Assembly: GCF_015330165.1 (NCBI RefSeq)
Contig: NZ_JADDXT010000002.1
Span: forward strand, 1,812,663 to 1,876,662
Origin: Zobellia roscoffensis
GTDB lineage: Bacteria > Bacteroidota > Bacteroidia > Flavobacteriales > Flavobacteriaceae
DNA: 64,000 nt
Reading direction: 5' to 3'
Shown: piece by piece, positions 15,506 through 62,306 of the stretch
Numbering within the stretch: the first letter of the stretch is position 1
How the letters are laid out: every line of letters begins with the position of its first letter
The notes under the pieces: generated by a model
Databases searched by the model: none
Told to the model about the DNA's origin: nothing
Seen by the model: only the letters and a program-made list of their open reading frames with translations
Translations under genes and position numbers: made by a program

Positions 15506-15525
15506 ATTTTTAATCTAAAGTAGAA

Positions 15526-42019: not shown

Positions 42020-42277
42020 AAAGGCGCCTAGAGTATGAGCTTTGATTTGGTCTTTTCTTTTAAAAACCTTAAGTTTTGTGCTAAATTTAGGTGTCTATAA
42101 ATCTAAATCAGGCTGATTGAATTGTGTATTCATCAAAAATGAAAGTAATATTTACTTCCATGTGAAATATTTGTTCTTTTGTTATTAAAAAAGTTAACGG
42201 TTTTGAAGTTTATTATAATAAATTTGTATTATTATACTTACAAAGCGCACCCTATTTTTAATTTTCAATAATACTTA

Positions 42278-43291
42278 ATGTCTTTACTCCAGATAATCCA
42301 TCGACTAAAAGAAGTAAATAGCTTGACCAAGCACGAACAATTGGTGCATGGTGTTATAGAAGCTTTGGATTCTGGGGAGCTTTTGGTTGGTGATAAATTA
42401 CCATCAATAAATAAAATGGTATCAGATATTGGCTATGCTAGAAAGACCATAGTTAAGGCTTATGAGGAGTTAAAAGAGAGAGGGCTGGTAGAGTCTAAAA
42501 AATTAAAAGGGTACTTTATTATAAGTGATGAGACTAAAGTGACGTTGAGGATAGCCTTGCTTTTATTTTCTTTTCAACGTTTCCAAGAAGACTTTTATAA
42601 CTCTTTCAGAAAAGAACTAGGAAATAAGTATCAGATAGATGTTTTTTTTCATCACAACAACATTTCGATTTTTGAGACCATTTTCAATAATATTCGAGGT
42701 AAATATGGAATGTATGTGGTAGCTCCAATTCCAGATAAGGTAATTAGGCCTCTTCTTTTGACGATCGAACCTCAAAAGTTACTGATAGTTGACCGGTATT
42801 TGCCAATGCCAGATGAGTATTCGTATATAGCTCAGGAATTTGAGGCAACCACATTTGATAAGTTAATAGAGTTGCTTCCAGAAATTAGAAAATATAAGAA
42901 GCTAGTTCTTTTTTATGCTGAAAATAGAGACTACCCACGTGGAATTTTATTGGCCTTCCATAGGTTCATTGCTGATTATGGTATAAATGGAGTTGTGTTA
43001 GAGGATTATGTTGAAGGTTCTCTTGAAAAAGAATCCATTTACTTTTTCATTAATGACGCTTCTCTTTGGGAATTACTTAAGGACTGCCATAATTCTAATT
43101 TGGAAGTGGGCGAAGATGTGGGGGTGCTATCTCATAATGACCACATAATTAAAGAAATTGCCTTTGGAGGTATTACTACAATCTCTACGGATTTTAAAGA
43201 TATGGCTACAATGGCTGCCCAACACATTAAAAATAACATGGTTTCTCAGACCATTGTTACTTCAAAACTGTTTAAGCGTAACTCTTTGTGA
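42278..43291 (+). CDS. GntR-family winged-HTH transcriptional regulator with a periplasmic-binding-protein-like sugar/effector domain. Likely regulator of the downstream SusCD locus.
   Basis: GntR-type wHTH (LPSINKMVSDIGYARKTIVKAYEELKERGLV). The C-terminal domain resembles LacI/PBP type I. Confidence 0.65.
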   Translation: MSLLQIIHRLKEVNSLTKHEQLVHGVIEALDSGELLVGDKLPSINKMVSDIGYARKTIVKAYEELKERGLVESKKLKGYFIISDETKVTLRIALLLFSFQRFQEDFYNSFRKELGNKYQIDVFFHHNNISIFETIFNNIRGKYGMYVVAPIPDKVIRPLLLTIEPQKLLIVDRYLPMPDEYSYIAQEFEATTFDKLIELLPEIRKYKKLVLFYAENRDYPRGILLAFHRFIADYGINGVVLEDYVEGSLEKESIYFFINDASLWELLKDCHNSNLEVGEDVGVLSHNDHIIKEIAFGGITTISTDFKDMATMAAQHIKNNMVSQTIVTSKLFKRNSL

Positions 43292-43432
43292 TATTAGCGT
43301 AATAGCTGAATTTGCTGTAAAATTCATCCTTATAAATTTTAGAATATCTATTTTTTAGCGCTTAAAATGATTAATTCTCATTTTTGGCAGCGAAAATTGT
43401 TTTTGGTATGGAAAAAATTCTTATTTTTGCTT

Positions 43433-43452
43433 TGTAGCATAGTGTAGCATAG
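43433..43452. repeat. Perfect tandem direct repeat TGTAGCATAG x2 in the regulator-SusC intergenic region.
   Basis: Read directly from the sequence: ...gctttGTAGCATAGTGTAGCATAGattc... Confidence 0.9.
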
Positions 43453-43558
43453 ATTCTTTTCGTGATGTTAAATATTTTGTTGTTCAATGCCTTTAAATTT
43501 TGTTTTTTTCAAAAAAAAGGGGGTAACTTGTATTATAATACCGTTAAAGTGCATTTAT

Positions 43559-43614
43559 GTAACGCTCGGCTTAATTTTGTTTTTAGTCTTTTTTAACGTT
43601 CTGATGAGCGTTAC
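43559..43614. promoter_or_regulatory. 9 bp perfect inverted repeat GTAACGCTC...GAGCGTTAC with a 38 bp spacer. It encloses a Bacteroidota -7-like box TAATTTTG (43572-43579). Candidate promoter and operator of the SusC operon.
   Basis: The inverted repeat arms (43559-43567 and 43606-43614) are read directly. TAnnTTTG is the Bacteroidetes sigma-A -7 consensus. No clean -33 TTG was seen. Confidence 0.35.
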
Positions 43615-43669
43615 GTGTGGTGAAAACAAAAATACTAACTCAATTTATTACTAACTTAAACTACTCATT

Positions 43670-46600
43670 ATGAACCAGAACTTTAAGAGATTAAATAGAG
43701 TTCGATCACATGGTTTTGTGCTCGCAGCTTTGTTTTTCTTCAGTGTTGCATCTTTGTGCGCACAAACCACAATTTCAGGTACTACTTCTGACGACCAGGG
43801 CGTATTGCCTGGCGTAAACGTATTGGTGAAAGGTACTACCGTTGGAAGCGTTTCGGATTTTGATGGAAATTACAGTATAGAGGTGCCGGAAGGCAGCTCT
43901 GCTTTGGTCTTCTCCTATGTGGGGTATTCCAAACAAGAAGTGGCTATAGATGGCCGCACAACAATTAATGTTACTTTGGCCGAAGATGCACAGGCACTTA
44001 GCGAAGTAGTTGTCGTTGGGTACGGTACCCAACGAAAAGCAGATTTAACAGGTGCTGTTGGATCTATTAGTTCTGCGGATATTGTTTCCAAACCTATTAC
44101 TAGCCCTGATCAAGCGTTGGCGGGTACTATTTCTGGGGTAAATATTACAAATCGTAGTGGTGATCCAGGTGCCCCTATTAGTGTGTTGATTAGAGGTGTA
44201 GGTACTGCGGGAAATACAGACCCATTATGGGTAATTGATGGTATTCCTATTGTACAGACAACCAATATAACTGTAAACACCTCTTCTACTACAGATTCTA
44301 ACCCATTAGCTGGTTTAAATGCTAATGATATTGAATCTATAGATGTTTTAAAGGATGCTGCCTCAACGGCAATTTATGGGTCTAGAGCTGCAAACGGTGT
44401 TATTATCGTTACGACCAAAAGAGGAAAGAGCGGAGACGCTAAGGTAACTTATAACGGTTATGTTTCAACTTCTACGGCTAGAGATAGAATAGATGTTCTA
44501 GATGTAGAGCAGTTTATTGATATTCAAGGTCAATTAGGTAGGGACCTTTCAGAGTTTTCTGGAAGCCCATATGTTGATTGGCAAGATTTAATTTTTCAAA
44601 CAGGATTCATTCAAAACCACAATGTAAGTGTTAGTGGTGGAAATGATAAGGCCAAATATTTTATTTCCGGAGGATTGTTAGATCAGGATGGTATTGAATT
44701 AGCTCAAGGTTTTAAAAGGTATTCTTTGAAAGCTAATTCAGAAATTAACGTTGGTAAATATTTAAAATTTGGTGAATCCATTCTTTTAAGTCAAACGGAT
44801 AGACAAGTGCAAAGTGAACAAGGTATTTATGCAGGTTTTAATTCTGCATTGAATGCACCATATTACCAGCCTTATGGTAATGGAGCTTTTGGTTATAATG
44901 ATTCTACTCCGGAAACTAGGGGTAACGGTATAACAGCGAACAACTACCTGTTTAATACCGATGATAGATACACAACCACAAATTTACAGACACGCAAAAT
45001 CTTAGCTAGTTTCTACGGGGAATTACAGATTTTAGACGGGTTAAGATTTAGACCTTCTTTAGGTATAGATTACAACGTGGGTGTTGGTGATTATTTTACA
45101 TCTGATGCCGTTCTGAATAATTCTACTGGGTCATCTCTTTTGGTTTCTTCCAGACCTATTGAATTAACGTTAACATCAGCTGCTACTTTGCAGTACGATA
45201 AGACTTTTGGCGATCATAATATAGGAGCATTGTTCGGTTTTGAGCAAACAAAATTTAGATTTGACAAGTTACGTGTACAAGGTAGAAGTTTATTTAATGA
45301 GAACTTTGCATCAACCGGAGAGGTTGGCACGGTAGGGGCGGCCAATGAGGCGGATTTATGGACCTTACAAGGATGGTTGGGTAGACTCACCTATAACTAT
45401 CAAGGAAAATATTTAGCTACATTTAATATTCGACGTGATGCAACTTCAAGATTTTCTCCTGATAACAGAACAGATGTGTTTCCTTCTGTATCTTTAGGTT
45501 GGAGAGTTTCAGATGAGGAATTTTTTCCAAAGGATGGAGCTTTTGATGATTTAAAGATTCGTGCAGGATGGGGTCAGTCTGGTAACCAGGCCTCGCCAAC
45601 GAATTTCCCATATTTAAGTGCTGTAGATAGTAATATAAGATATGTGATCGGTGATGATCAGGGGACAGTTACAGCTCCTGCACCTACCACTTTTGCCAAT
45701 CAAGATTTGTTTTGGGAAACGAGTACTCAATTTGATGTAGGTCTTGATTTTAGTTTATTCAATTACAAGTTGACCGGTAGCTTTGATTATTACAATAAAG
45801 TTAATGACGGCGTTCTTATCGGGTTACCATTACCATACGTTTCTGGCTTTTTCTTAGCTCCTGATGCTAATATCGGTTCTATTAAAAACTCTGGACTTGA
45901 ATTATCACTTAACTACGCAGGTGAAGCTGGGGATTTTACATATTCTATTGGTGGTAATTTCACAACAAACAATAATGAGGTTACTGATTTAGGAGAGGTT
46001 ACTCAAATCATAACAGGAATTGGAGGTGCAAGTACGCACAGAACTATAGAAGGTGAAAGCCTTGGCCATTTTTATGGCTATAAGACTGATGGTTTGTATC
46101 AAAATGATGCTGAGGTTGCGGCTGCCGTACCAGATGCTAACGGAACGCCTTCTCCTGGAGACATACGTTTTGTAGATGTAAATGGTGATGGTATTGTTGA
46201 CGCTGATGATAGAACTGAACTAGGAAGTCCTTTTCCTGGATTCTACTACGGTATGAATTTTAATGCAGCATATAAAGGGTTTGATTTCTCAATCAATTTT
46301 AGAGGGGTAGGAAACAAGCAAGTTTATAATTCTGCTAGAATAGCATTGGAAGATTTAAGTTCTGGTAACAACTTTAGTACGCAGGTTTTAGACCGGTGGA
46401 CGGGTGAAGGAACTGCTACTTCTAGTTCAAATCCAAGATTGACGTTGAACGATCCTAACGGGAACAACAGATATTCAGATAGATGGATTGAAGATGCAGG
46501 TTATTTAAGAATTCAGAATGCACAAATAGGCTATAACCTTCCTCAAGATTTATTAACTTCTTGGACAAACGATATGATTTCTAATTTTAGAATTTATGTT

Positions 46601-46768
46601 GGTGCTCAAAACTTAGCAACATTTACTAAGTATTCTGGTTATGATCCAGAAGTTGGTAGAACGCAGAGTTTTCAAAAGGGTGAGTTTACATTGGCTACAG
46701 GTCAAGATGGTGGAGCTTCACCAACACCTAGAATCTTTCAGTTAGGGTTATCCGTAACGTTCAATTAA
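43670..46768 (+). CDS. susC: SusC/RagA-type TonB-dependent outer-membrane transporter.
   Basis: Signal peptide, CarbopepD-like domain (ISGTTSDDQGVLPGVNVLVKGTTVGSVSDFDGNYSI), plug with the SusC-specific segment, a 1032 aa barrel and a C-terminal ...SVTFN. Confidence 0.95.
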   Translation: MNQNFKRLNRVRSHGFVLAALFFFSVASLCAQTTISGTTSDDQGVLPGVNVLVKGTTVGSVSDFDGNYSIEVPEGSSALVFSYVGYSKQEVAIDGRTTINVTLAEDAQALSEVVVVGYGTQRKADLTGAVGSISSADIVSKPITSPDQALAGTISGVNITNRSGDPGAPISVLIRGVGTAGNTDPLWVIDGIPIVQTTNITVNTSSTTDSNPLAGLNANDIESIDVLKDAASTAIYGSRAANGVIIVTTKRGKSGDAKVTYNGYVSTSTARDRIDVLDVEQFIDIQGQLGRDLSEFSGSPYVDWQDLIFQTGFIQNHNVSVSGGNDKAKYFISGGLLDQDGIELAQGFKRYSLKANSEINVGKYLKFGESILLSQTDRQVQSEQGIYAGFNSALNAPYYQPYGNGAFGYNDSTPETRGNGITANNYLFNTDDRYTTTNLQTRKILASFYGELQILDGLRFRPSLGIDYNVGVGDYFTSDAVLNNSTGSSLLVSSRPIELTLTSAATLQYDKTFGDHNIGALFGFEQTKFRFDKLRVQGRSLFNENFASTGEVGTVGAANEADLWTLQGWLGRLTYNYQGKYLATFNIRRDATSRFSPDNRTDVFPSVSLGWRVSDEEFFPKDGAFDDLKIRAGWGQSGNQASPTNFPYLSAVDSNIRYVIGDDQGTVTAPAPTTFANQDLFWETSTQFDVGLDFSLFNYKLTGSFDYYNKVNDGVLIGLPLPYVSGFFLAPDANIGSIKNSGLELSLNYAGEAGDFTYSIGGNFTTNNNEVTDLGEVTQIITGIGGASTHRTIEGESLGHFYGYKTDGLYQNDAEVAAAVPDANGTPSPGDIRFVDVNGDGIVDADDRTELGSPFPGFYYGMNFNAAYKGFDFSINFRGVGNKQVYNSARIALEDLSSGNNFSTQVLDRWTGEGTATSSSNPRLTLNDPNGNNRYSDRWIEDAGYLRIQNAQIGYNLPQDLLTSWTNDMISNFRIYVGAQNLATFTKYSGYDPEVGRTQSFQKGEFTLATGQDGGASPTPRIFQLGLSVTFN

Positions 46769-46790
46769 GTTTAAAAAATTATAAAATATT

Positions 46791-48317
46791 ATGAAAAAAA
46801 TAATTGTATTTTTTGCATGTGCATCACTGTTAGGAGTTCTCTCCTGTGGTGACCAGCTAGACCTTGAGCCTCTGGACCGTGTGACTACGGATCAGTTTTA
46901 CAAAACAAGAACGGATTTTGATGGAGCTGTTTTTGCTTCCTATTCATCTATCCAAGATTTTTGGGGAACTAGTACTGAGACGTTGGGTGAAAGAGGTGAG
47001 TTTTGGAAAATCTCCTTGGCAATAACCGATGATGTAGCAGCCGATGAAGTAAACGGAACTTCTTCTAGAGATATAGATAACCTCTTACTTCGTTCTAATG
47101 ATGTTCCTTTCGGAGCAGTTTACACTCAGATTTATGAAGGTATATATAGAGCAAATATTGTACTTGAAAATCTTGAAAAAGAGAATGAGTTAACTGCAGA
47201 AGATAAGACCATAATTAATGCCGAAGCTAAATTTTTAAGAGCTTGGTTTCATTTTCAGGCTATGAAGATGTTTGGTACGCCACCTTTAGCCCTAGATATT
47301 AGAACAGATATTAATGATCAGGCCAGACCAAATGCAACACAAGAAGAATTATATGCCGCAATATTGGCAGATTTGGCTGAAGCTGAGGCAGGTCTTCCTG
47401 CTGATTGGGATGGCTCTAATACAGGTAGAGTTACCTTATGGACTGCTAAAGCGTATATTGGTAAAGTAAATGTTTGGAAAGAAGATTGGCCAACAGCTAT
47501 TACGGCACTAGAAGAGGTTGTTAATTCGGGACCTTATGTTTTGGTTCCAGACTATGAGCAGTTATTTGCTTACACGAATGAGAATAATTCAGAATCTATT
47601 TTTGAAATCCAGTATGGTGGTCCGTTTTCTGATGATAACCTTTGGGTTTTTGATGATACACACTCAGAAGATTTTAAAGCTTCTCAAGGAACGGCGCGAG
47701 GAAATTATTGGGATGCAGGTGGTGATGCACCGGGCGGAAAACAAGGTCAGTGGGTTCCTACTCAAGATTTAGTGGATGCTTATGAGGCAGGTGATGAAAG
47801 ATTAGCGGTTACTGTATATCAAGATGGTGATATGTATTATTCTTTTGATGGAACGCGTTATGAAATTCCTTATGATCCTGCTTGGTCTTCGTCAGGGTAT
47901 ACTTTGAAGAAGTATAGAGGAACTTTAAATGCTGTAGTAGGTAACTCTTCTGCTAACGGACAAGTAGATTTTAACAATGAGCGTTGGTTTAGATTTGCAG
48001 AAGCTAAATTACTTTATGCGGAAGCTTTGATTCAAGGTGGAGGTGATGTTGGACTTGCTTTTGACGAAATAGATGATATTCGTGATAGAGCTGGTCTAGG
48101 TCTTGTTGACCGTTCGTTAGACCCTATGGACGCGTTAATGCAGGAAAAAAGAGTAGAGCTGGCCTTAGAACCACACAGGTACTTTGATATTACTAGATGG
48201 GGAATTGGAGCTGAGATTTTTGGAGCTGCTTGGGACGATAAATACAATGTATTTCCGTTTCCACTTACAGAAATTGATAGGTCTAAAGGTTTGCTAATCC
48301 AGAACTCAGGATATTAA
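46791..48317 (+). CDS. susD: SusD/RagB-family surface glycan-binding lipoprotein.
   Basis: Lipobox LSCGD. TPR-like SusD fold with WF..R/EL motifs. Immediately downstream of SusC. Confidence 0.9.
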   Translation: MKKIIVFFACASLLGVLSCGDQLDLEPLDRVTTDQFYKTRTDFDGAVFASYSSIQDFWGTSTETLGERGEFWKISLAITDDVAADEVNGTSSRDIDNLLLRSNDVPFGAVYTQIYEGIYRANIVLENLEKENELTAEDKTIINAEAKFLRAWFHFQAMKMFGTPPLALDIRTDINDQARPNATQEELYAAILADLAEAEAGLPADWDGSNTGRVTLWTAKAYIGKVNVWKEDWPTAITALEEVVNSGPYVLVPDYEQLFAYTNENNSESIFEIQYGGPFSDDNLWVFDDTHSEDFKASQGTARGNYWDAGGDAPGGKQGQWVPTQDLVDAYEAGDERLAVTVYQDGDMYYSFDGTRYEIPYDPAWSSSGYTLKKYRGTLNAVVGNSSANGQVDFNNERWFRFAEAKLLYAEALIQGGGDVGLAFDEIDDIRDRAGLGLVDRSLDPMDALMQEKRVELALEPHRYFDITRWGIGAEIFGAAWDDKYNVFPFPLTEIDRSKGLLIQNSGY

Positions 48318-48432
48318 TAATCTTCTTTTAGGGTTTCCCTAAAAAGTATAGTAATTTTACTGAAAGGAATCCAATTTTGAATAACCCCTAGATTGGATTC
48401 CTTTCTATTTATAGACGTTTTTAATTTCTTTC

Positions 48433-51400
48433 ATGTTCGCTACGTATAAAATCAGTTTGTTTTATTACTCGCTCTTCTCCTGCGTGGTATTATGTATTTT
48501 ATCATGCTCTAAGAATGAAAAAACACTTTTTAAAGAAATAACATCTTCTGAATCTGGTCTAACGTTTCAAAATAAACTAAACCTAACAGATACACTTACC
48601 ATACTAGATTTTGAGTATATGTACAATGGCGCTGGTGTTGCTGTGGCCGATTTTGATTTGGACGGCCTTCAGGATGTCTATTTTACGGGAAATATGGTGA
48701 GCAACCGCCTGTATCGTAACCAAGGTAATTTTAAGTTTGAAGATATTACTGAGTCGGCAAATGTGGGTTCTACGCATTGGTCTAATGGTGTGGCTATAGT
48801 TGATATTAATCAAGATGGTTTTCCTGATATTTATGTTTGTAGAGCAGGGCCAAGAAATGCAAAAAGTGAAAACAAAGCGAACCTATTGTTTGTAAATAAT
48901 GGTTTAAAGGATGGTAAGTTGTCTTTTACTGAAGAAGCTCAAAAATGGGGGTTGGCAGACACAAGTTATTCAGTGCAATCGGTTTTCTTTGATTATGATG
49001 GAGATGGCGATTTAGATATGTACCTTTTGAACAATGCATTGGTAGATTTTAATAGAAATACGGCAAAACCTAAAGAAGGTCGAGAAAAAGTTCCTTCTGT
49101 AGATAAACTCTTTAGAAATGACAGTGGCGAGAACGAAGCTGGGAATCCAGTTTTTACCGATGTTTCGGCCGAATCAGGTATTTCTATTGAAGGGTATGGT
49201 CTTGGTATTGAAGTATGTGATATGAATTCAGATGGTTGGCCAGATATCTATGTGTCCAATGATTTCCTTACGGATGATTTGCTCTATATCAATCAAAAAA
49301 ATGGTACGTTCAAAAATGAAATAGCCTCTTATTTTAAACATCTTACTTTTAATGGTATGGGCAATGATATTGCTGATATTAATAATGACGGGAATATGGA
49401 TGTTGTTGTTTTGGATATGCTTCCGCCAGACAATAAACGGTGGAAACTCACCATGATGGGCAATAATTATGATCAGTTTAGAAATAGACTAGATTACGGT
49501 TATCAACCTCAATATATTAGAAACACACTGCAGCTCAACAATGGCAATGGTTCTTTTAGTGAAGTGGGACAGCTTGCAGGAATTGATGCAACGGAATGGA
49601 GCTGGAGTGCCTTGTTTGCAGATTTTGACCAAGACGGACTTAATGATCTTTGCATTACTAATGGTTACCGACAAGATATTACCAATCTGGACTTTATGGT
49701 CTACGGGGATCGGGTATTAACCATGGGTACAGCAGAGGCCAATCGTAAAAAACGTATTGAAGAACTCAATAAACTACCGGGAATAAAAGAAAACAACTAC
49801 TTCTTCAAGAATACTGGTAACCTAACATTTGAAGATGCTTCTACAGAAGTAGGTTTTGATAAACCAACATACTCTAATGGCATGGCATACGCCGATTTGG
49901 ATAATGATGGCGATTTGGATTTGGTAATGAACAATATTGATGATCCCGCTGGTTTATTTGAAAACACACTTTCTTCAGAGGAAAACAGATACATTAGGTT
50001 CAAGTTTAAAGGTTCTGAAAAGAACAAACAAGCGTTAGGAAGCAAGGTCGAAATCTTCTATGGGGGTAGTGTACAAAAAAAATATTTCACGCCTTATCGT
50101 GGGTATTTATCTACGGTAGAACAAGCGTTGCATTTTGGAGTGGGCCAATCCAAAGAATTGGATAGCATAAAAGTCATATGGCCCGATGGGAAAACTCAGA
50201 ATCTTCAAGGCGTTGCTGTCAATCAGGAGTTGGTACTTCAGTATGAGAATGCTGTAGAAGGAAAACAAACCAAAAAAAGCGAAACACTTAAAACATGGCT
50301 TCAGCCAATAGATAGTATTGGTCTTAATCGGTTACACGTTGAGAATGAATTTGTAGATTTTAAGGTTCAGGCATTGTTGCCACATATGCATTCTAAAAAT
50401 GGACCGGGAATGGCGGTGGCAGATGTAAATGGCGATGGTTTGGAAGATTTATACGTTGGTGGGGCAACTGGTCAAGCCGGTGCAATACTACTTCAAAAAG
50501 TAGATGGTTCTTTTATAACTTCCGAATTTGAGGAAATGAAAAATGAAGACATGGGTGCGTTGTTTTTTGATGTCGACAATGATGGTGACCAAGATTTGTA
50601 TGTTGTAAGTGGTGGCTCTTCATATCAGGTGGGTGATAAGGCCTACCAAGATAGACTTTATGAAAATGATGGGTTGGGTAACTTTACTCAAACCAATGCA
50701 CTTCCAAATATGTTGGTCAGTGGTTCTGTGGTTACGGCGGCAGATTATGATAAAGATGGTGATTTAGACCTTTTTGTAGGTGGTAGAATAAGACCTGGTG
50801 AATACCCATTATCGCCGGAGAGTTTTCTCTTGAAAAATAACGGTACAGGAACCGGAATAAAGTTTGTAAAAGATGAACAGTCTGCCAATTTAGACCTTAC
50901 CAATTTGGGGATGGTAACTTCGGCCTTATGGACGGATTTTAATAATGATGGCTGGGAAGATTTAATTGTTGTTGGGGAATTTATGGCGGCTCGTTTCTTT
51001 CAGAATAATAAAGGAGAATTGTCCGATGTTACCGAAATAACAGGTCTTTCGCACACTAATGGTTGGTGGAATAGCATTACATCAGGTGATTTTGATAAGG
51101 ATGGAGATACAGATTATGTTTTAGGAAATCTTGGACTCAATAGTAAATTCAAGGCCAGTACAAAAGAACCTTTGTGCGTCTACGCTAGCGACTATGATAA
51201 GAACGGCCAAATAGACCCGGTTATGTGTCATTATGTAGATGGAGAAAACTATGTGGCACACTCACGTAATGATTTAATTAGTCAGGTCAATGCTATGCGC
51301 TCACGCTTCAGGACTTTTTCTGATTATGCAGATGCTACTTTTGAGGAGTCTTTTTTAAAGGAAGAAATAGAGCAAGCGCACGTGGTACGAAGTGAAACTT

Positions 51401-54900: not shown

Positions 54901-55475
54901 ATGTAGAAAATCAAGGGAATGGAAAATTTAAACTCCATGAGCTTCCATTGGAATTGCAAACAGCACCTATTCAGGGTGTGGTGGTCAGTGATTTTAATGA
55001 AGATGGAAATCTAGATGTGCTCATGACGGGTAACTCGTATGCTACAGAAGCGGCAACAGGACGTTATGATGCATTTGTTGGGGCTTTCTTAAAAGGAAAC
55101 GGTAAAGGTTCTTTTGAAAATATTTCTATAGCTGAAAGCGGGTTTTTAAGTGATTGGGATGCGAGTGGTTTGGCTTTGATTCATATGGGTGACGGAAGAC
55201 AAAATATATTGGCGGCAAATAATGATAATCAACTAAAAATATTTCAGCAGACAGAACTCGGAAATGGAAAGGTGATTAATGTAGGGGCAAATGCACTTTC
55301 GGCTGTTATTAAATTAAAGAACGGGCAGAAATACAAGAAGGAGTTTTACTTTGGTTCGGGATATTTATCTCAAAGTAGCAGAAGTATTGGCTTAAATAAG
55401 AATATTAGAGAGATTGAGGTTATAGATAAAAATGGAAATACAAAAACAGTGTATTTAGATGAAGCAGTTAAGTAG
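51966..55475 (+). CDS. Paralogous FG-GAP / ASPIC-UnbV (CRTAC1 family) lipoprotein. Tandem duplicate of the preceding gene.
   Basis: Lipobox LFVGCG. Same domain order and DxDxDG loops, collinear with 48433..51969 along the whole length. Its start ATGA overlaps the upstream stop. Confidence 0.8.
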   Translation: MKMLKPLIFVLGLTFLFVGCGEKETHRFRLLDASKTGIDFQNTITENDSINVFEFMNVYTGAGVAVGDIDNDGLTDVYFSGNMVSGRLYRNKGNFQFEDITEKSGLLNTRWGTGVSMVDINQDGFLDIYVCVSGSAEVSERANMLYINNGDMTFTEMAEEYGLADTRQSMHAAFMDYDKDGDLDMYLLVNPAAYEYNVNVSKPREVEGQSVSNDRLYENMGNGKFQDISDKAGIVLEGYGLGVGISDINGDNWPDIYVSNDFIGNDILYINQKDGTFKDQITEQIKHTSYAGMGNDVADVDNNGEPDIMVLDMRPEDNERQKLIISSTGYDRFQIMLDAGYNAQYSRNTLQLNQGRDKFSEVGFMAGISSTDWSWSPLLADYDNDGRKDLYVTNGFLRDLGDLDYIHYQKAYDNPVGDVDTKIQMKLKSISELPMADLPNYAYRNKGDMTFEKVSDSWGIDKASCSHGAAYADLDNDGDLDLLVNNMDQPAFVYENVGLPEKKNHYLKIKLKGEKGNLQGIGAKLKLTTTDSEQFYQHYLSRGYESSVDPTVHFGLGKSKEIESIEVWWPNGTYQILNNQAVDTVLVLQQSNATKDIPQKKEFKKQFFSDVTDSLGVSFKHQEDDFVDFKLQPILPHMHSRNGPGLAVSDVNGDGLEDFYIGGAIGQPGELLLQKTDGSFVSKEGFDADFEDLGVLLFDANGDGYNDLYVVSGGVSASVDAGKFQDRLYVNDGKGGFMLSDALPAISASGSCVVANDYDKDGDLDLFVGGRVNPGKYPMPAQSYLLENQSSGSDFKFVDASNTIEGWKELTMVTSALWTDYDNDGWTDLIAVGEFMPISIFHNEKGKLVLQKEGTGLTKTEGWWNSINGGDFDQDGDVDYILGNLGLNSKYTVTADEPLCIYAKDYDKDGRVDPIMCYFINGENHLAHSRDEIIGQVNAMRSRFKTYKSYAETNFEKSFLQEELKDAYVVKSYTFSSSYVENQGNGKFKLHELPLELQTAPIQGVVVSDFNEDGNLDVLMTGNSYATEAATGRYDAFVGAFLKGNGKGSFENISIAESGFLSDWDASGLALIHMGDGRQNILAANNDNQLKIFQQTELGNGKVINVGANALSAVIKLKNGQKYKKEFYFGSGYLSQSSRSIGLNKNIREIEVIDKNGNTKTVYLDEAVK

Positions 55476-56781
55476 TATACTCATATTATGTTTGGTTTTA
55501 TTGGTGTCCTGTGGCACCAAGCACAATCAAGAAGGGCTAGATGCTTATTTTGAAGGAGGTTTATCAAACTATAATCGTCAGCTTACAAATGTTATAGTTG
55601 CTGATATTTTTACCCCGCCAGTAGCAAGTAGAATTTATGCGTATTCCAACGTGGCCGCCTATGAGGGTATTCGTTTTGCAGATGCATCAAAGGAGTCTTT
55701 AGTGTCTAAGTTGAATGATTTAGATAAATTATCAGAACCGGAAGCTGGTAAAAAATATTATTACCCATTGGTTTCTGCGGTGGCTTTCATGAATGTGGGT
55801 AAAGCCTTGGTGTTTGATTTGGATAAAGTGGAAGCTATTAAGAGTAGTATGTTGACCGAAGTTAAGGATATCGGTATTGACGAAGCAGTTTACCAAAATT
55901 CAGTATCCTTTGGAGAAAAATTGGCAACTGAAATCTTGAGTTGGGCAGCAAAAGATGGATACTTGCGCCGTACTGCGCTTCCTAGATATTCGGTAAGTGA
56001 TGATGCGGGTCGTTGGAGGCCAACCCCTCCAGATTATATGGAGGCCATAGAGCCACATTGGAACACCATTAGACCCTTTGTTTTAGAATCTGCTGGACAA
56101 TTTGATCCTGGACTTCCTACTGCTTTTAATATTGAAAAAGATTCTAAGTTTTATGAGGAAGCTGTTGAGGTGTATGAAACCGTAAATAAATTAGATGATA
56201 AGCAATTGGAGGTCGCCAAGTTTTGGGACTGTAATCCTAATATATCTCATACCAAGGGGCATGTCATGTATTTTCAGCAGCAAATATCACCCGGAGGACA
56301 TTGGATGCACATTGCAGCACAAGTATTGGAAGAAGAAAAAGCTGATGGCGTAACAGCTGCTGAAACCATGTCTTTGTTAGGAGTGACAATTGCAGATGCA
56401 TTTATCAGTTGTTGGGATCAGAAGTATAAGAGTAGTTTAACCAGGCCAGAAACGTATATCAATAATTACATAGACCAAGATTGGGAGCCTATTCTTCAAA
56501 CACCGGCTTTTCCTGAGCATACATCAGGACACAGTGTGGCTTCTAGTGCCGCAGCAACGGCCTTAACGGAGTTGTTTGGTGAGAACTATGCTTTTGTGGA
56601 TGCAACCGAAGTTCCATACGGTCTTCCTCCAAGAAGTTTTCAGTCGTTTTGGCAAGCTGCAGAAGAAGCAGCTATTAGTCGCTTATATGGAGGAATACAC
56701 TATAGACCTGCTATTGAACTTGGCGTTGCGCAGGGAAAGGCAGTAGGAGGGTTTGTTATAAAACGCCTTAAGTCTGACTAA
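55459..56781 (+). CDS. PAP2-superfamily lipoprotein of the vanadium-dependent haloperoxidase / acid-phosphatase type.
   Basis: Lipobox LLVSCG. All three PAP2 motifs are present: K-x6-RP (KYKSSLTRP), PSGH-like (PEHTSGHS) and SR-x5-H-x3-D-like (SRLYGGIHYRPAIE). Overlaps the upstream gene by 17 nt. Confidence 0.7.
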   Translation: MKQLSSILILCLVLLVSCGTKHNQEGLDAYFEGGLSNYNRQLTNVIVADIFTPPVASRIYAYSNVAAYEGIRFADASKESLVSKLNDLDKLSEPEAGKKYYYPLVSAVAFMNVGKALVFDLDKVEAIKSSMLTEVKDIGIDEAVYQNSVSFGEKLATEILSWAAKDGYLRRTALPRYSVSDDAGRWRPTPPDYMEAIEPHWNTIRPFVLESAGQFDPGLPTAFNIEKDSKFYEEAVEVYETVNKLDDKQLEVAKFWDCNPNISHTKGHVMYFQQQISPGGHWMHIAAQVLEEEKADGVTAAETMSLLGVTIADAFISCWDQKYKSSLTRPETYINNYIDQDWEPILQTPAFPEHTSGHSVASSAAATALTELFGENYAFVDATEVPYGLPPRSFQSFWQAAEEAAISRLYGGIHYRPAIELGVAQGKAVGGFVIKRLKSD

Positions 56782-57262
56782 GGGTTCAAGCTAAAAGTTA
56801 TTGAGCGAAAGGATATGTTTTTGAGTCTAAGTATATTTTGGATAGTTGGCTGTCTTTTTAGATGAAGTATGTAGAAGGTTTACTAAAAATGAAAGATATT
56901 TCTTATGTTTTTATTAAATAATGGGTATATTTCGATGTGTTTTTGTCGAAAGAATATTTTTCTCTTAAATAAGATTCTAAGTAGGTTTTTAAAAAACGAA
57001 TATTTCTATTCATTTGAAATAATGGTTGGTCTGTAAATCAGAGTTTTAGATAATGATAGCGATAAGTTTTTTTGGAGACCTTTAGAATACACTGTATATT
57101 TGAATAGTAGCATAGAATATCATAGTATAATAAAAAACAATTATATCTTGTTTTCCTATCATGAATGGAAGAAGGTTTTAGTTTTAAAGAATACTTTATT
57201 GCTCAATAGAAAATGATAATACCATCAGTTGTTAATTAATTTCCTCCCAATAAAAAAATCAG

Positions 57263-59032
57263 ATGATTGTAAACACTACCCTAACAGCAACCTCCGACAT
57301 AACGATTATCGGTGCAGAGCAAAATTTCCAAACGTCACTTAAAAAAGTACATGATCATGAAGGTACAGTGGTCTATGATTTTGAAGTAGCAGGAGATGAG
57401 AAACAGATACCGAAACCTATAACGCTACAATGGAAGGTTCCTGCGATTAATGTAAAGGGAGTTTGGAAGCCTACAACAGATTTTAACAAACGTATTCAGG
57501 CAGATTGGGAGTTAGATAATATGGAATCTAGAATTTCTATTGATTCTCCTGTGATTTCCCTTTTTGGTAATAGTGATGAGAATATTTTAACTTTTGCTTG
57601 TTCCAATGCCATTAATAAATTAGAAATGAATGCGCGTTTGCGTGAGGAGGACAATTGTTTTTATTGCTATATCACTTTTTTTATGGAACAACATTACCCT
57701 CTTAAAAATTTCAAAGCACAGATAAGACTTGATCATCAAAATCAGCATTTTTCTGATAGTCTCCGTGCCGTATCTTCTTGGTGGGAAACTTTTGAGCAGT
57801 TAAAACCAGCTTATGTTCCGGATATCGCTAAAAAACCATTGTATTCTACCTGGTATCAATTTCATCAAAACTTAGAAATACCACTACTTTTAGAGGAATG
57901 TAGATTGGCCAAGGATTTAGGTTACGAGGCAATTATTATTGATGACGGTTGGCAGACATTTGACTCTAATAGAGGGTATGATTTTACTGGAGATTGGCAG
58001 CCGGACCGTATTCCTGAAATGGCGGAATTCGTAAAAAGTGTGCATGAAACAGGAATGAAAGTAGCCCTTTGGTATTCCGTTCCGTTTTGTGGTGAAAAAT
58101 CAAAAGCTTTCAAACGTTTTAAAGGGAAATTCTTGACGGAAGACCATAGATGGGCACCAGTTTTTGATCCGCGCTACCCAGATGTACGACAATATTTAAT
58201 CGATATTTATTCAAGTGCTGCTAAAGACTGGAATCTAGATGGCTTTAAACTCGATTTTATAGACGATTTTAGATTTTATAAAGACACACCTACGAAATTA
58301 GGAGCAGATGCGGATTACGCTTCTATTAACGGTGCGGTTGACCGTTTGTTAACAGACGTAAAAAATGCTTTAACAGAAATAAACCCCGAAATCTTTATTG
58401 AGTTCAGACAAAAATATACTGGACCGGCAATGCGTAAGTATGGCAATATGTTCCGGGCTTTTGATTGCCCGGGAGATGCCACTATGAACCGTTTGCGAAT
58501 TGCAGATATACGTATGCTTGCGGGTAACACAGCAGTGCATTCTGATATGGTTACCTGGCATGAAGATGAACCTTTGGAAATTGCAGCACTTCAGGTAATC
58601 AACACGCTTTTTGGGGTTCCTCAACTGTCAATTATGTTGAGTGAAACTCCTAAAGAGTATGTAAATATGATTGGGTTTTATACTAAATATTGGAATGAAA
58701 ATGCCGATGTTCTTATGAACGGTGATTTTCTTCCTTCTAAACCTCTTGCCAACTATCCCACGAAGCGAGTTTCTAAAAATGGGCAAGTCATTATTGGAGT
58801 ATATGATACTTGGATTATTGAACTTAACGAAGCACATAATTTAGTCGATATCTTAAATGCACAGATAGCGAATCAGGTTGTTATCAGAAATACGAAAGAC
58901 TTAGGAGCGTATCGTTGTAAAATTTATGATTGCCAAGGAAGTTTGATACGGGAAGATAATGTAGTATTTTCGAAAGGCGTACTTGAAATTGAGGTTCCCG
59001 CTTGTGGAATCATCAAAGCCGAGAAAATATAA
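57263..59032 (+). CDS. Cytoplasmic glycoside hydrolase, GH36-like (clan GH-D alpha-galactosidase family).
   Basis: IIIDDGWQ....GDW...IPEMAEFVKSVHETGMKVALWYSVP closely tracks the GH36 catalytic-domain consensus (DDGWF...GDW...vH..GMKFGLW). Candidate nucleophile in FKLDFID (the KWD equivalent). No signal peptide. Confidence 0.6.
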   Translation: MIVNTTLTATSDITIIGAEQNFQTSLKKVHDHEGTVVYDFEVAGDEKQIPKPITLQWKVPAINVKGVWKPTTDFNKRIQADWELDNMESRISIDSPVISLFGNSDENILTFACSNAINKLEMNARLREEDNCFYCYITFFMEQHYPLKNFKAQIRLDHQNQHFSDSLRAVSSWWETFEQLKPAYVPDIAKKPLYSTWYQFHQNLEIPLLLEECRLAKDLGYEAIIIDDGWQTFDSNRGYDFTGDWQPDRIPEMAEFVKSVHETGMKVALWYSVPFCGEKSKAFKRFKGKFLTEDHRWAPVFDPRYPDVRQYLIDIYSSAAKDWNLDGFKLDFIDDFRFYKDTPTKLGADADYASINGAVDRLLTDVKNALTEINPEIFIEFRQKYTGPAMRKYGNMFRAFDCPGDATMNRLRIADIRMLAGNTAVHSDMVTWHEDEPLEIAALQVINTLFGVPQLSIMLSETPKEYVNMIGFYTKYWNENADVLMNGDFLPSKPLANYPTKRVSKNGQVIIGVYDTWIIELNEAHNLVDILNAQIANQVVIRNTKDLGAYRCKIYDCQGSLIREDNVVFSKGVLEIEVPACGIIKAEKI

Positions 59033-59042
59033 CGAACTTCAA

Positions 59043-59603
59043 ATGACCGAAAAAGAGAAAATGATTGGTGGAAAACCTTATAACCCTCATGATAAGGAGT
59101 TGGTTAGAGGTAGGTTGAACGCAAGAAGACTAATGCGTGAAATTGAAGCCATACCCATGGATAAGGAACGGCAACGTAAACATTTTTTCAAAGAGTTATT
59201 TGCTGAGACCGGTAAAAATTTTTACATAGAGAATCGTTTTACTTGCGATTATGGCTTCAATATTTATTGGGGGGAAAACTCATACGCTAATTTTGATTGT
59301 ATTATTTTGGATGCAGCGCCAGTTTACATTGGTAAGAATGTTATGATAGCTCCTGCGGTAAAACTTCTTACGGCAACGCATCCTCTTGAATTTGAAGCAC
59401 GCAATTCCGGCATTGAATACGCAAAACCTATAAGAATAGGTGATAACGTTTGGATTGGCGGCGGGGTAATCGTTAATCCAGGGGTTACAATAGGAAATAA
59501 CAGTGTTATAGGTTCTGGTAGTGTTGTGGTAAAAGACATTCCTGAAAATGTAGTAGCTGTTGGTAATCCGTGTCGCGTACTAAAGAAAATTGATAACTCA
59601 TAA
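59043..59603 (+). CDS. maa: Maltose/galactoside O-acetyltransferase (Maa/LacA family, left-handed beta-helix).
   Basis: ORF 58983..59603. The ATG at 59043 gives MTEKEKMIGGKPYNP, the Maa N-terminus. Hexapeptide repeats (IGDNVWIGGGVIVNPGVTIGNNSVIGSGSVV). Confidence 0.85.
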   Translation: MTEKEKMIGGKPYNPHDKELVRGRLNARRLMREIEAIPMDKERQRKHFFKELFAETGKNFYIENRFTCDYGFNIYWGENSYANFDCIILDAAPVYIGKNVMIAPAVKLLTATHPLEFEARNSGIEYAKPIRIGDNVWIGGGVIVNPGVTIGNNSVIGSGSVVVKDIPENVVAVGNPCRVLKKIDNS

Positions 59604-59648
59604 TTATAGCTCTTCACTCTCTCAACACCAACTTAAAACACTAAAAAT

Positions 59649-61298
59649 ATGCTCTCAATAGTTTCATTTGTAGGTTTTACGCTCTTAGTTGCGCTAATTG
59701 CGTGGTACGCTACACGAAGTACCAATGAAAAGTCTGCTGATGGCTATTTTTTAGCAGGTAGGAGTTTAGGAGCAATCACTATAGCGGGTTCATTACTCTT
59801 AACTAACCTTTCAGCTGAACAGATTGTCGGCCTTAACGGGCAGGCGTTTACGGAAGGTGTACTGGTAATGGCTTGGGAGACATTGGCGGCTATTGCTATG
59901 ATTATTACCGCTGTATTTCTGCTTCCAAGGTATATGAGAGGCGGTATAACAACTATTCCGCAATTTGTGGCAGATAGGTTTGATCATGGAACAAAAGCTA
60001 TTCTAACGGCGCTGTTTTTATCTGGTTATGTTATTGTGGTAATTCCATCCGTACTGTATTCAGGTTCATTGGCATTCAGTACCATGTTTGATTTACCTAG
60101 CCTTCTTGGACTTTCAGATACAGCCACTCTATGGATTTGCGTTTGGAGTATTGGTATCATTGGAATTATATATGCAATTTTTGGAGGATTAAAAGCAGTT
60201 GCGGTCTCTGACCTTATCAATTCTATAGGACTTTTAATTGGTGGACTTCTTATTCCGGTTTTTGGACTGTTGGCTATTGGAGATGGAAGTATTTCTGATG
60301 GGGTGAGTATACTTTGGGAGAGTCATCCAGAGAAATTCAACGTTAAAGGAGATGTAGATGCTTCTATTCCCTTTGGAACGATTTTTACAGGAATGATGTT
60401 GGTGCAGATGTTCTATTGGGGAACGAACCAAGTTATTTTGCAACGTGTTTTTGGAGCTAAGAATCTAAAGGAAGGTCAAAAAGGGGTGATTCTTGCCGCT
60501 TTAGTGAAGTTTTTAATACCCATAATAGTAGTGTTACCAGGTATTATTGCATGGCATATTTTTGAAGGTAACCTTGATAATCCAGATCAAGCCTATCCTA
60601 AATTAGTAGCAACGGTACTTCCTGCGGCATTTACAGGTCTTTTTGCGGCTGTACTTTTTGGTGCTATTCTTAGCTCTTTTAATAGTTTATTGAATAGTAG
60701 CGCCACTTTATTTGGTTTTGACCTTTATCGTCAATATTTCAAAAAGAATGCCACAGAGCTTGAAACCGTAAAAGCGGGTAAGATGTTTGGTCTTGTTCTG
60801 GGTATCCTAGGTATGTGTGTGGCTCCTTTAATAGCGAATGCTCCCCAAGGTTTGTTTGCGTGGTTGCAGGAGGCCAATGGTTGTTATAGTATTCCTATTT
60901 TAACGGTAATTGTTATTGGTTTCTTTACCAAGCGTGTGCCGGCCATAGCGGCGAAAATTGGTGTGATTTCAGGTGTTGTGCTGTATTCTATTAGTCAGTT
61001 TATCATTAAGCCTTATTTTGTAGATAATGCACTTACCGAGGCTGCACAAAATGGAATAACAGATGCCAAGGCTTTAAGTGTGATTCAGGCCGAGGCTTAT
61101 CCTCACTTTTTACACGTAATGGCTATTTTATTCGCCTTGAATATTATTATCATGTTGGTTATAGGTAAACTTCACCCAAGAGAAACAGATTACCAACCTA
61201 TGACAACAGATGCTGTAAGTGTGGAGCCATGGAAATATGCTTTTATAGCAGGAGCAGCTATTACAGCTTTAGTTTTAAGTACGTATTTGATATTCTAA
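59649..61298 (+). CDS. Sodium:solute symporter (SSS family, SGLT-like sugar transporter).
   Basis: About 14 TM helices. GYFLAGRSLG N-terminal motif and SSS signature regions. Confidence 0.88.
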   Translation: MLSIVSFVGFTLLVALIAWYATRSTNEKSADGYFLAGRSLGAITIAGSLLLTNLSAEQIVGLNGQAFTEGVLVMAWETLAAIAMIITAVFLLPRYMRGGITTIPQFVADRFDHGTKAILTALFLSGYVIVVIPSVLYSGSLAFSTMFDLPSLLGLSDTATLWICVWSIGIIGIIYAIFGGLKAVAVSDLINSIGLLIGGLLIPVFGLLAIGDGSISDGVSILWESHPEKFNVKGDVDASIPFGTIFTGMMLVQMFYWGTNQVILQRVFGAKNLKEGQKGVILAALVKFLIPIIVVLPGIIAWHIFEGNLDNPDQAYPKLVATVLPAAFTGLFAAVLFGAILSSFNSLLNSSATLFGFDLYRQYFKKNATELETVKAGKMFGLVLGILGMCVAPLIANAPQGLFAWLQEANGCYSIPILTVIVIGFFTKRVPAIAAKIGVISGVVLYSISQFIIKPYFVDNALTEAAQNGITDAKALSVIQAEAYPHFLHVMAILFALNIIIMLVIGKLHPRETDYQPMTTDAVSVEPWKYAFIAGAAITALVLSTYLIF

Positions 61299-62143: not shown

Positions 62144-62306
62144 AATAAGTGCAAAACTAGATTTATTCTGTAAAGCTTCAAGGTTTAAAGACAAAAAAAT
62201 AGAATTTGTTGGTTGTTCTAGTGAATAGGGGGTTGTTCCTGTTAATTTACGAAATAAATGAATAGAGTTGTAGATAACAGGATTAATGAAAAAGGAGAAC
62301 TCTGTT

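Follow-up and report, generated by a model that had tools for sequence, protein, structure and literature searches.

A SusC/SusD locus of Zobellia roscoffensis with twin-propeller lipoproteins and a vanadium haloperoxidase: a tentative case for import of a galacto-configured glycoconjugate

The gene families that meet in the locus described here, a SusC/SusD-containing cluster of nine genes in Zobellia roscoffensis, are individually familiar from other settings. Classical Sus-like polysaccharide-utilisation loci (PULs, or "utilisomes") resemble it in their SusC/SusD pair and in the large lipoproteins encoded straight after susD; like it, they also have a sugar-type regulator, a transporter in the inner membrane and a glycosidase inside the cell. 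Zg-VIPO1 and VIPO2 of Zobellia galactanivorans share with its vanadium-dependent haloperoxidase (VHPO) the same family, fold, lipoprotein signal and vanadate residues, and no published link of the Zg-VIPO enzymes to SusCD or propeller proteins was found in the literature searched. The named relatives of its two largest lipoproteins, designated UnbA and UnbB, are CRTAC1 (murine, PDB 9ETN) and the UnbV/E4 proteins of enediyne biosynthesis, from which the Unb proteins differ by a tandem duplication of the module, by a lipid anchor and no EGF domain, and by being encoded as a pair of paralogous genes beside SusCD and a VHPO. Iodine uptake by Arenibacter C-21, in a Flavobacteriaceae genus with the Unb-VHPO arrangement, needs an H2O2 source, a haloperoxidase and Ca2+; it is a phenotype without a linked gene and does not call for a TonB-dependent SusCD importer. 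We know of no CRTAC1/UnbV family member with a defined, transferable biochemical function, nor of any function assigned to the bacterial twin-propeller branch of this family, and to our knowledge bacterial vanadium iodoperoxidases are described by structure and in vitro chemistry, with no established physiological role.

The locus spans positions 42278-61298 of a 64,000-nt stretch of contig NZ_JADDXT010000002.1 (positions 1,812,663 to 1,876,662 of the forward strand; hereafter the window). Nine co-directional plus-strand open reading frames (ORFs) were confirmed there, at the positions listed in the first-pass annotation (a reading of the DNA without database searches), and their families were assigned by Pfam and NCBIfam profile searches of the window proteins:

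42278-43291, + strand: GntR-HTH/Peripla_BP_3 regulator of AraR-like architecture, orthologue of ZGAL_2083
43670-46768, + strand: SusC-type TonB-dependent outer-membrane transporter (TIGR04056, TIGR04057, CarbopepD_reg_2 and Plug)
46791-48317, + strand: SusD-family lipoprotein (SusD_RagB 104 bits, SusD-like_3 77 bits)
48433-51969, + strand: UnbA, 1178-aa lipoprotein (FG-GAP_3 and UnbV_ASPIC)
51966-55475, + strand: UnbB, 1169-aa paralogue of UnbA (FG-GAP_3 and UnbV_ASPIC)
55459-56781, + strand: VHPO lipoprotein, 440 aa, PAP2 fold, orthologue of ZGAL_2088
57263-59032, + strand: GH36-like (clan GH-D) predicted cytoplasmic glycosidase, 589 aa (Melibiase sub-threshold, GH36 fold)
59043-59603, + strand: maltose/galactoside O-acetyltransferase-type (Maa) hexapeptide transferase, 186 aa (Mac and Hexapep)
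59649-61298, + strand: YidK-type sodium:solute symporter (SSS), inner membrane (NF007790/PRK10484)

The adjacent susC (TIGR04056) and susD (PF07980/PF14322) genes are those of a Sus-like PUL. In contrast to classical PULs, the profile searches of the window yielded no recognisable extracellular glycoside hydrolase (GH), polysaccharide lyase (PL) or carbohydrate esterase (CE), as had been claimed before, the third lipoprotein is predicted to be a halide-oxidising metalloenzyme, and co-localised carbohydrate-active enzymes (CAZymes) amount to one sub-threshold GH36-like gene behind a 481-nt gap. The reading that we favour, at somewhat less than even confidence, makes the locus a PUL-like system that imports a galacto-configured glycoconjugate, possibly amino-sugar-bearing or sulfated, in which the propellers would bind the substrate and the VHPO would carry out H2O2/iodide chemistry at the cell envelope. 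The tight coupling by overlapping codons proposed earlier for the whole series holds for the Unb-Unb (ATGA, 4-nt) and Unb-VHPO (17-nt) junctions and fails at the others: SusC and SusD are separated by 22 nt, SusD and UnbA by 115 nt, and AT-rich gaps of 378 nt ahead of susC and 481 nt ahead of the GH36-like gene hint at a division into three or more transcription units.

The third lipoprotein, labelled "PAP2/haloperoxidase-like" in the first reading, does have a PAP2 fold and a relation to haloperoxidases, and it is more than "like": a bona fide VHPO homologue. Compared with PDB sequences, it has one match, 4CIT/4USZ ("vanadium-dependent haloperoxidase", Z. galactanivorans; E 2.5e-135, 455 bits), the crystallised iodoperoxidase Zg-VIPO1, to which it is 48% identical over 428 residues; it is 100% identical to a database "vanadium-dependent haloperoxidase [Zobellia roscoffensis]" and 82% identical to CAZ96246 (ZGAL_2088) of Z. 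galactanivorans DsijT, which has identical neighbours. The vanadate site (K322, R329, S356, G357, H358, R408, H414) is kept and is invariant in 14 orthologues; it aligns with what we take to be the site of Zg-VIPO1 (K324, R331, S358, G359, H360, R410, H416), and W319, C318 and F351 (VIPO1 W321, C320 and F353) are also conserved. The protein thus combines a complete vanadate site with high similarity to an enzyme of demonstrated haloperoxidase activity. It lacks the PAP2 acid phosphatase motif S-R-x5-H-x3-D, since its motif 3 is SRx5Hx3A (SRLYGGIHYRPA), with Ala replacing the charge-relay Asp of PAP2 phosphatases, which the adjacent membrane PAP2 protein (61310-62353) retains (SRIWDGQHYLSD). 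Exactly three Z. galactanivorans genes are annotated as VHPO (ZGAL_1262, ZGAL_2088 and ZGAL_2250); two of the three Zobellia enzymes are reportedly strictly iodide-specific, and we take VIPO1 to be zobellia_1262 (ZGAL_1262) and VIPO2 to be zobellia_2088. The window VHPO is the orthologue of ZGAL_2088, which is probably Zg-VIPO2. Because it is orthologous to ZGAL_2088, within a family that has a characterised iodoperoxidase, the chemistry to be explained is halide oxidation by H2O2, not the recognition of a halogenated or phosphorylated glycan that had been suggested for this locus.

The importer itself is unambiguous: SusC scores 885 bits against a cut-off of 368 for TIGR04056 and also matches the SusC signature TIGR04057, and the window SusD carries an acidic surface-export signal, C-G-D-Q-L-D-L-E. 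UnbA and UnbB, 50% identical over their full length, each contain nine FG-GAP_3 stretches and one UnbV_ASPIC domain in Pfam, that is, the FG-GAP propeller followed by an UnbV_ASPIC domain that is characteristic of CRTAC1/ASPIC-UnbV proteins. Each is also internally duplicated (N- versus C-half 26% identity, E 4e-11), giving two copies of a CRTAC1-like module made of a seven-bladed Ca-binding FG-GAP propeller and an UnbV_ASPIC beta-sandwich, with 7+7 calcium loops of the form Dx[DN]x[DN]G per protein. The C-terminal EGF-like domain of vertebrate CRTAC1 has no Pfam match in Unb, which carries the second propeller module there instead. The Ca-associated substrate that had been proposed finds nothing to point to it, the calcium sites being structural loops of the FG-GAP blades. 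The family is very large, with 14,551 cluster representatives (50% identity) at E<=1e-30, and the best 150 of these all score above 1,080 bits, nearly all spanning the full twin-propeller length. Neither HMM nor fold comparison matched Unb to CAZy catalytic modules, including the propeller lyases PL11, PL22, PL24, PL25 and PL42 and any GH, so the possibility that the large lipoproteins belong to a known PL or GH family can be set aside; beyond CRTAC1, an extracellular protein not known to be an enzyme, the fold matches are generic seven-bladed propellers.

Outside the calcium loops, the invariant Unb residues include L-P-H-M-H-S-x-N-G-P-G (649-659), H943/R945/R956/R958 and Q360-Y361-x-R363, many of which fall in insertions that are modelled with least confidence. 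In the UnbA AlphaFold2 model (pLDDT 76.6, pTM 0.73), the segments with pLDDT below 50 are residues 339-364, 414-438, 639-654, 943-957 and 1039-1052, and the low-pLDDT segments hold the highly conserved non-calcium motifs QYIRNTLQLN, LPHMHSxNGPG and HSRNDLIxQxNAMRxRF; segments that are conserved and yet poorly predicted in the model may indicate a ligand- or partner-dependent site. With respect to localisation, a lipobox Cys was found in 29 SusD, 84 Unb and 76 VHPO orthologues, and an acidic surface-export motif (at least two D/E at positions +1 to +5 after the lipobox Cys) in 90%, 21% and 14% of them, respectively. Of the surface placement assumed earlier for the large lipoproteins and the PAP2-fold protein, the lipid anchor therefore stands for all, and the export motif only for a minority.

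Conservation of gene order was assessed by running a VHPO profile over a single genome from each GTDB species, which gave 79 loci (80 with Z. galactanivorans, L081), onto which the window proteins were mapped and in which all neighbouring ORFs were clustered. SusD, at least two Unb and VHPO occur in the window order and strand in 32 of the 80 loci, and two further loci have one Unb; where the contig allows, the full gene set is present at every locus that has a VHPO of 57% or higher identity to the query. The core is present in Zobellia, Maribacter, Flagellimonas, Ulvibacterium, Christiangramia and Aquimarina (Flavobacteriia), in Cytophagales (L029 and L030; Agaribacillus, Cyclobacteriaceae) and in Saprospiraceae (L021, L032, L036, L039, L044 and L062). 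This five-gene core is far beyond chance, its order and strand being kept in three classes of Bacteroidota. Several loci have Unb and VHPO with SusCD not in reach, among them four (L052, L063, L069 and L075, mostly Saprospiraceae) that have three Unb. Unb is more closely tied to VHPO than to SusCD. Z. galactanivorans has a second cluster, ZGAL_1258 (SSS), ZGAL_1259-1261 (three Unb) and ZGAL_1262 (VHPO), without SusCD, as well as a SusC-SusD-Unb trio, ZGAL_158-160, with no VHPO annotated alongside among the rows listed; Unb-VHPO and SusCD-Unb therefore appear as two recurrent couplings that are combined at the window locus.

Downstream of the VHPO, the loci differ in composition and return to a limited set of themes, namely alpha- and beta-galactoside cleavage, alpha-GalNAc/GalN, sulfate esters, amino-group acetylation and sodium symport. 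Genes found after the VHPO include:

L036, same strand: GH36-like, SSS
L032, same strand: canonical GH36 (Melibiase 343 bits), SSS
L039, same strand: GH36-like, GH2 LacZ-type, SSS
L062, same strand: GlpD/GlpO-like, GH36-like, GH2, GH36-like, SSS
L020, same strand: GH36-like, GH97, sulfatase, DUF5009
L014/L015: DUF5009, 3-keto-disaccharide hydrolase, FGE-like, GFO, with GH109 (opposite strand) and a sulfatase with SGSH_C domain
L030, same strand: sulfatase, unknown, GH97

Of the 45 Unb+VHPO loci, 26 have at least one glycan-module family in the 10 kb downstream, vs. none of the 16 VHPO-only loci (Fisher p = 2e-5, kinship ignored). This comparative context (GH36-like, canonical GH36, GH2, GH97 and GH109 genes after the core elsewhere) lends support to the galactose-bearing substrate that the first-pass annotation had considered.

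Several further neighbours recur around the VHPO. A DUF5009 multi-pass membrane protein (HGSNAT-like, amino-group acetylation) is encoded directly 3' of the VHPO (~11350-12550) in L014, L015, L018, L021, L023, L024, L025 and L027 and nearby in five more loci; in Zobellia this position holds the soluble Maa-type acetyltransferase, so that two unrelated acetyltransferase types occur with the same core. Beside DUF5009, near the VHPO, L010, L018, L023 and L034 encode a Tat-exported flavin amine oxidase (e.g., L018:12632-14116, Amino_oxidase 146 bits, twin-arginine signal KRREFLRSGVLAGSSLLATPLAFG), directly downstream of DUF5009 in L018 and L023, which may supply the haloperoxidase with H2O2 in the periplasm. 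A DASS/SLC13 anion symporter (Na_sulph_symp, 266 bits) directly follows an Unb-less VHPO, at ~11300-12900 in each case, in six distant loci (L042, L051, L061, L065, L068 and L070), a recurrent pairing of a different kind, which might serve to supply halide, vanadate or sulfate anions. The Saprospiraceae locus L063 encodes, besides its three Unb, a VHPO (10001-11332), a GH65-family protein and a second VHPO (13567-14958). The locus is intact in relatives, which disposes of the concern that it might be disrupted there, with the exception of the metagenome-assembled genome (MAG) locus L009:1330-6499 (isolate MFD09779), the sole disrupted-looking case, where susD aligned in three pieces and the first Unb in two; assembly frameshifts are a more likely cause of these fragments than real pseudogenes.

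The cytoplasmic block of the window can be compared with GH36 operons and with lacZYA. The GH36-like protein has no signal peptide; in Pfam it scores 24.6 bits for Melibiase vs. a cut-off of 27, with no GH36N or GH36C match, and has sub-threshold Melibiase, GH31 and GH97 matches. Its AlphaFold2 model (pLDDT 83.5) has GH36 structures as its top 33 Foldseek matches (TMq 0.56-0.67), first the Flavonifractor plautii alpha-galactosaminidase 9AWT (E 4e-28, TMq 0.66) and then alpha-galactosidases, with GH31 alpha-galactosidases ranking lower, and its NCBI name is "glycoside hydrolase family 36 protein". DDGW(227), K-L-D331 and R-A-F-D401-C-P-G-D are invariant in 33 homologues, and the protein has the three-domain GH36 fold with nucleophile (K-x-D), acid/base (R-x-x-D) and DDGW motifs, their catalytic roles being assigned by analogy. 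With GH36 operons the window shares this clan GH-D glycosidase with DDGW, K-x-D and R-x-x-D-C-x-G motifs; it differs in the sub-threshold Melibiase score and in the 12-16% identity to any solved GH36, and a Gal, GalN or GalNAc specificity cannot be called from such similarity. A sulfoquinovosidase assignment was dropped: the DDGW and C-x-G motifs are GH36-type, a GH31 sulfoquinovosidase ranks only 43rd, and there are no sulfoglycolysis genes. The acetyltransferase scores 238 bits for PRK10092 (equivalog cut-off 314) and 183 for PRK09527 (LacA; cut-off 347), and its start is most likely the ATG at 59043 (the 186-aa gene call), not the TTG at 58983; the symporter scores 739.5 bits for NF007790/PRK10484 (cut-off 401) and 179 for SSF. 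The GH36-like protein, the LacA/Maa-type acetyltransferase and the symporter form a lac-operon-like cytoplasmic block; as in lacZYA, a sugar acetyltransferase of the hexapeptide type is grouped with a cation symporter, which here is of the SSS/YidK type, not MFS. Compared with the window, the Zobellia uliginosa locus (L002) is 64-77% identical in the core and 90-97% identical in GH36-like, Maa and SSS, a mosaic pattern which suggests that the outer-membrane core is replaced or fast-evolving relative to the cytoplasmic block.

Upstream of the importer, the regulator has a 38-bit GntR match over residues 20-81 and a 29-bit Peripla_BP_3 match over residues 257-321, and regulator homologues adjoin the core in L003, L004, L005, L012 and L016. 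The closest solved structures of SusD or the regulator are uninformative on the ligand. The candidate operator sites are:

43530-43541: perfect palindrome GTATTATAATAC, candidate operator ~140 nt 5' of susC, sole exact match in the 64-kb window
42210-42237: near-copies TTATTATAATAA (42210) and GTATTATTATAC (42226), 1- and 2-mismatch relatives of the 43530 palindrome

The near-copies sit 40-70 nt before the GntR start, and these two and the palindrome, all flanking the regulator gene, rank above every other match in the 64 kb; the GT...AC shape of the palindrome is usual for GntR-family operators. GTATTATAATAC is absent upstream of the GntR homologues in the five loci just named and upstream of susC in L022. 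The operator repeats suggested earlier are thus present in the window and unconfirmed in the other-genus regions examined.

The proposed mechanism would replace the usual extracellular GHs or lyases with a binding-plus-oxidation module. SusC/SusD form the TonB-dependent outer-membrane importer, and the propeller proteins, which hold the position of surface glycan-binding proteins, would be substrate-binding partners of SusCD. The VHPO, presumably translationally coupled to the propeller genes, would make hypoiodous acid from H2O2 and iodide at the cell envelope, and this acid could oxidatively loosen or modify a recalcitrant glycoconjugate for fragment import; alternatively, the VHPO would consume H2O2 from glycoconjugate catabolism. 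The imported material would be an alpha/beta-galactoside and/or GalN/GalNAc, sometimes sulfated, which in Zobellia would cross the inner membrane via the YidK-type symporter and then be cleaved in the cytoplasm by the GH36-like enzyme, with a side role for the LacA/Maa-type acetyltransferase as in lacZYA, and with the AraR-like GntR/PBP regulator sensing a sugar product. A bolder version, which we consider rather unlikely, is a widespread "oxidative PUL" in Bacteroidota, where an envelope-anchored VHPO and CRTAC1-like propellers would use H2O2 and halide to fragment or unmask a recalcitrant glycoconjugate whose fragments SusCD would import, the conceivable routes being N-halo-amide/amine intermediates that form on sugars of the GalN/GalNAc type, or an attack on aglycones that are phenolic, tyrosine or unsaturated-lipid in nature.

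Expression of the locus can be followed in its orthologue in Z. galactanivorans DsijT (FP476056, 2424305-2445630), which has an identical gene order. Window vs. DsijT identity rises along the locus, with 73% for SusC and SusD, 81% for UnbA, 80% for UnbB, 82% for VHPO, 86% for the GH36-like protein, 92% for Maa and 96% for SSS. Supplementary tables of two published Zobellia transcriptome papers (one microarray, one RNA-seq) label ZGAL_2083 as a GntR-type transcriptional regulator, ZGAL_2084 as a TonB-dependent receptor, ZGAL_2085 as SusD, ZGAL_2090 as a maltose O-acetyltransferase and ZGAL_2091 as a sodium/solute symporter. In the microarrays, ZGAL_2083-2091 are expressed on glucose and on alginate, laminarin, agar, porphyran as well as kappa- and iota-carrageenan, with SusC/SusD signals of 1.2-4e4; constitutive silence of the locus is thereby excluded.

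Nevertheless, a number of observations weigh against the import of a galacto-configured glycoconjugate as outlined above. On the six purified algal polysaccharides, no significant change vs. glucose was seen in the microarrays (family-wise error rate 1), the largest changes being +1.3 to +1.4 log2 for ZGAL_2086 and ZGAL_2087 on laminarin. On fresh Laminaria, Fucus and Ascophyllum, RNA-seq log2 fold changes vs. maltose range from -1.2 to +0.2, with a sole nominally significant value (ZGAL_2087 on Laminaria, -1.19, p 0.002), and vs. alginate they reach at most +1.6 within the locus. Classical algal polysaccharides do not induce the locus, and the induction by a cognate glycan expected of a classical PUL was seen neither on the six purified polysaccharides nor on the three brown algae, although the true substrate may simply lie outside the conditions tested. 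Another difference from classical PULs is that the Unb and VHPO proteins are mostly without the acidic export motif, and its scarcity means that, judging from these signals, oxidation may be periplasmic rather than at the surface. No binding or catalytic site was located on the propellers, whose most conserved insertions are the least confidently modelled. Compared with Zg-VIPO1, the VHPO has Asn261 in place of Tyr263, this Asn being invariant in the orthologous group, and the iodide specificity ascribed to ZGAL_2088 is that reportedly found by Fournier et al. 2014, as is the VIPO numbering. The 481-nt gap and the different evolutionary rate (86-96% identity to Z. galactanivorans for GH36-like, Maa and SSS vs. 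73-82% for the core) mark the cytoplasmic module as a unit of its own. Many genera do not have it in the 10 kb downstream, where as many as 19 of the 45 Unb+VHPO loci are devoid of glycan-module families.

Part of this evidence is what one would expect if the locus were instead an iodine-handling or peroxide-defence module, in which Unb-VHPO would oxidise iodide with H2O2, be it to accumulate iodine, to detoxify the oxidative bursts of algae, or both; what SusCD imports would be a product that is iodinated or oxidised, with the glycan genes only loosely related (e.g., through sugar oxidation supplying H2O2). Expression that varies little across carbon sources, with no significant induction by purified polysaccharides, fits such a role, as do the inclusion of a proven iodoperoxidase in the family, the Tat-exported, H2O2-producing flavin amine oxidases that adjoin the core in 4 loci, the Unb-VHPO arrangement of Arenibacter genomes (L013) and the 14 Ca2+ loops per Unb, which could account for the Arenibacter Ca2+ requirement. 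To accumulate iodine, Arenibacter C-21, which has at least five VIPO homologues, requires either glucose together with O2 and Ca2+ or H2O2 supplied from outside (PMC5064120), and iodine accumulation is reported for Z. galactanivorans (PMC9296495). Yet a SusCD pair and an AraR-like sugar-sensing regulator would be superfluous for iodine uptake, HOI and I2 being membrane-permeant, and glycan-module genes are enriched only where Unb is present. The core also occurs in Saprospiraceae and other Bacteroidota MAGs outside macroalga-associated genera, some of whose habitats are expected to be scarcer in iodide. Moreover, ZGAL_2084-2087 are uninduced on living brown algae, which emit H2O2 and iodine, whereas ZGAL_2250, an unlinked VHPO gene, rises by 2.4 log2 on Ascophyllum vs. 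alginate; Brunet et al. name the Ascophyllum-induced gene vIPO3, and the matching table row is ZGAL_2250. On balance we regard this explanation as rather unlikely.

Somewhat less probable still is that the twin propellers are themselves enzymes, namely a new family of lyases, dehydratases or sugar oxidases, dependent on Ca2+ or a metal, which would break the substrate polymer down or make the H2O2 of the VHPO. The size and strong conservation of the family, its many invariant residues outside the Ca loops and the placement of its namesake UnbV/E4 in enediyne biosynthetic cassettes (JGI calls one homologue "enediyne biosynthesis protein E4") would suit catalysis; set against them are the failure of HMM and fold searches to reach any CAZy family, the sole specific relative, CRTAC1, which is not known to be an enzyme, the lack of an identified cofactor motif and a position after susD that is typical of binding proteins. 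A PAP2-fold protein that acts in vivo as a phosphatase, as apo-haloperoxidases can, would mean that the locus strips phosphorylated glycoconjugates to obtain phosphate, much as the Pho-regulated SusCD-like systems of soil Flavobacterium scavenge it. The fold and the shared K-x6-RP, SGH and R-x5-H motifs allow for this, and coupling of SusCD-like transporters to lipoprotein phosphatases in Bacteroidota is described in PMC8115612; the idea is nonetheless improbable in view of the 48% identity to the crystallised VHPO (PDB 4CIT/4USZ), a motif 3 without the charge-relay Asp (SRLYGGIHYRPA), unlike that of the neighbouring membrane PAP2 (SRIWDGQHYLSD), expression in all array cultures (media assumed phosphate-replete) and a window with no other Pho-type genes. 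That the genes form no functional unit at all, as a chance adjacency or remnant, could draw on the 378- and 481-nt intergenic gaps, which imply more than one transcript; with order and strand kept in 32 loci from three classes, overlapping Unb-Unb-VHPO reading frames and genes that are all intact and expressed in relatives, it has hardly any probability left, the synteny effectively refuting it.

The limits of the locus are set by its housekeeping flanks, with mutY, ssb, a CorC/CNNM-type gene and gldD to the left and, on the opposite strand to the right, genes for the membrane PAP2 and an HDAC-like deacetylase. Directly 5' of the regulator, at 40159-42019 (+ strand), the left border is formed by the CNNM/CBS/CorC-type gene, which by its position would be GldE-like, and by gldD, which encodes a gliding-motility lipoprotein. 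The membrane PAP2 gene (61310-62353, - strand), encoding the full phosphatase motif set, is directly downstream of and convergent with the locus and overlaps the HDAC-like deacetylase gene (62307-63209, - strand) by 47 nt; both neighbours are kept in Z. galactanivorans (ZGAL_2092/2093), Z. uliginosa and Ulvibacterium. Elsewhere in the window, at 12719-17151 (+ strand), another TonB-dependent receptor (928 aa; CarbopepD_reg_2, Plug, barrel) precedes a 541-aa protein whose C-terminus weakly matches GDSL lipases, constituting a separate, non-SusD uptake pair. No riboswitches or other RNA families were found in the locus leaders, and scans for sigma-70 promoters and terminators gave counts not above those of shuffled sequence, the sigma-70 model not being meaningful for Bacteroidota promoters.

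Overall, every gene family of the locus, its gene-by-gene annotation in the model strain and the biochemistry of the haloperoxidase family are already known. Three points appear undescribed in the literature searched, namely a SusCD-Unb-Unb-VHPO unit that extends across the phylum, the association of this unit with galactoside, hexosamine and sulfatase genes, and any function of the propellers; the earlier impression of an architecture without an assigned substrate agrees with this. The locus ties iodoperoxidases, twin propellers and the iodine accumulation of marine Flavobacteriaceae to a SusCD importer and to galactoside/hexosamine/sulfatase genes, in organisms related to the genetically tractable model Z. 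galactanivorans, where questions about the iodoperoxidases, the propellers and iodine are directly testable. Even if the VHPO merely detoxifies peroxide, a common and expressed SusCD system would remain whose substrate is unpredictable by current PUL annotation schemes. If the VHPO does act on the substrate, halogen-based oxidative chemistry would join the glycan-foraging repertoire, and marine carbon and iodine cycling would be linked. Should the "oxidative PUL" prove true, hypohalite chemistry would substitute for extracellular GHs, which would provide a first physiological role both for bacterial iodoperoxidases and for the bacterial CRTAC1/UnbV family.

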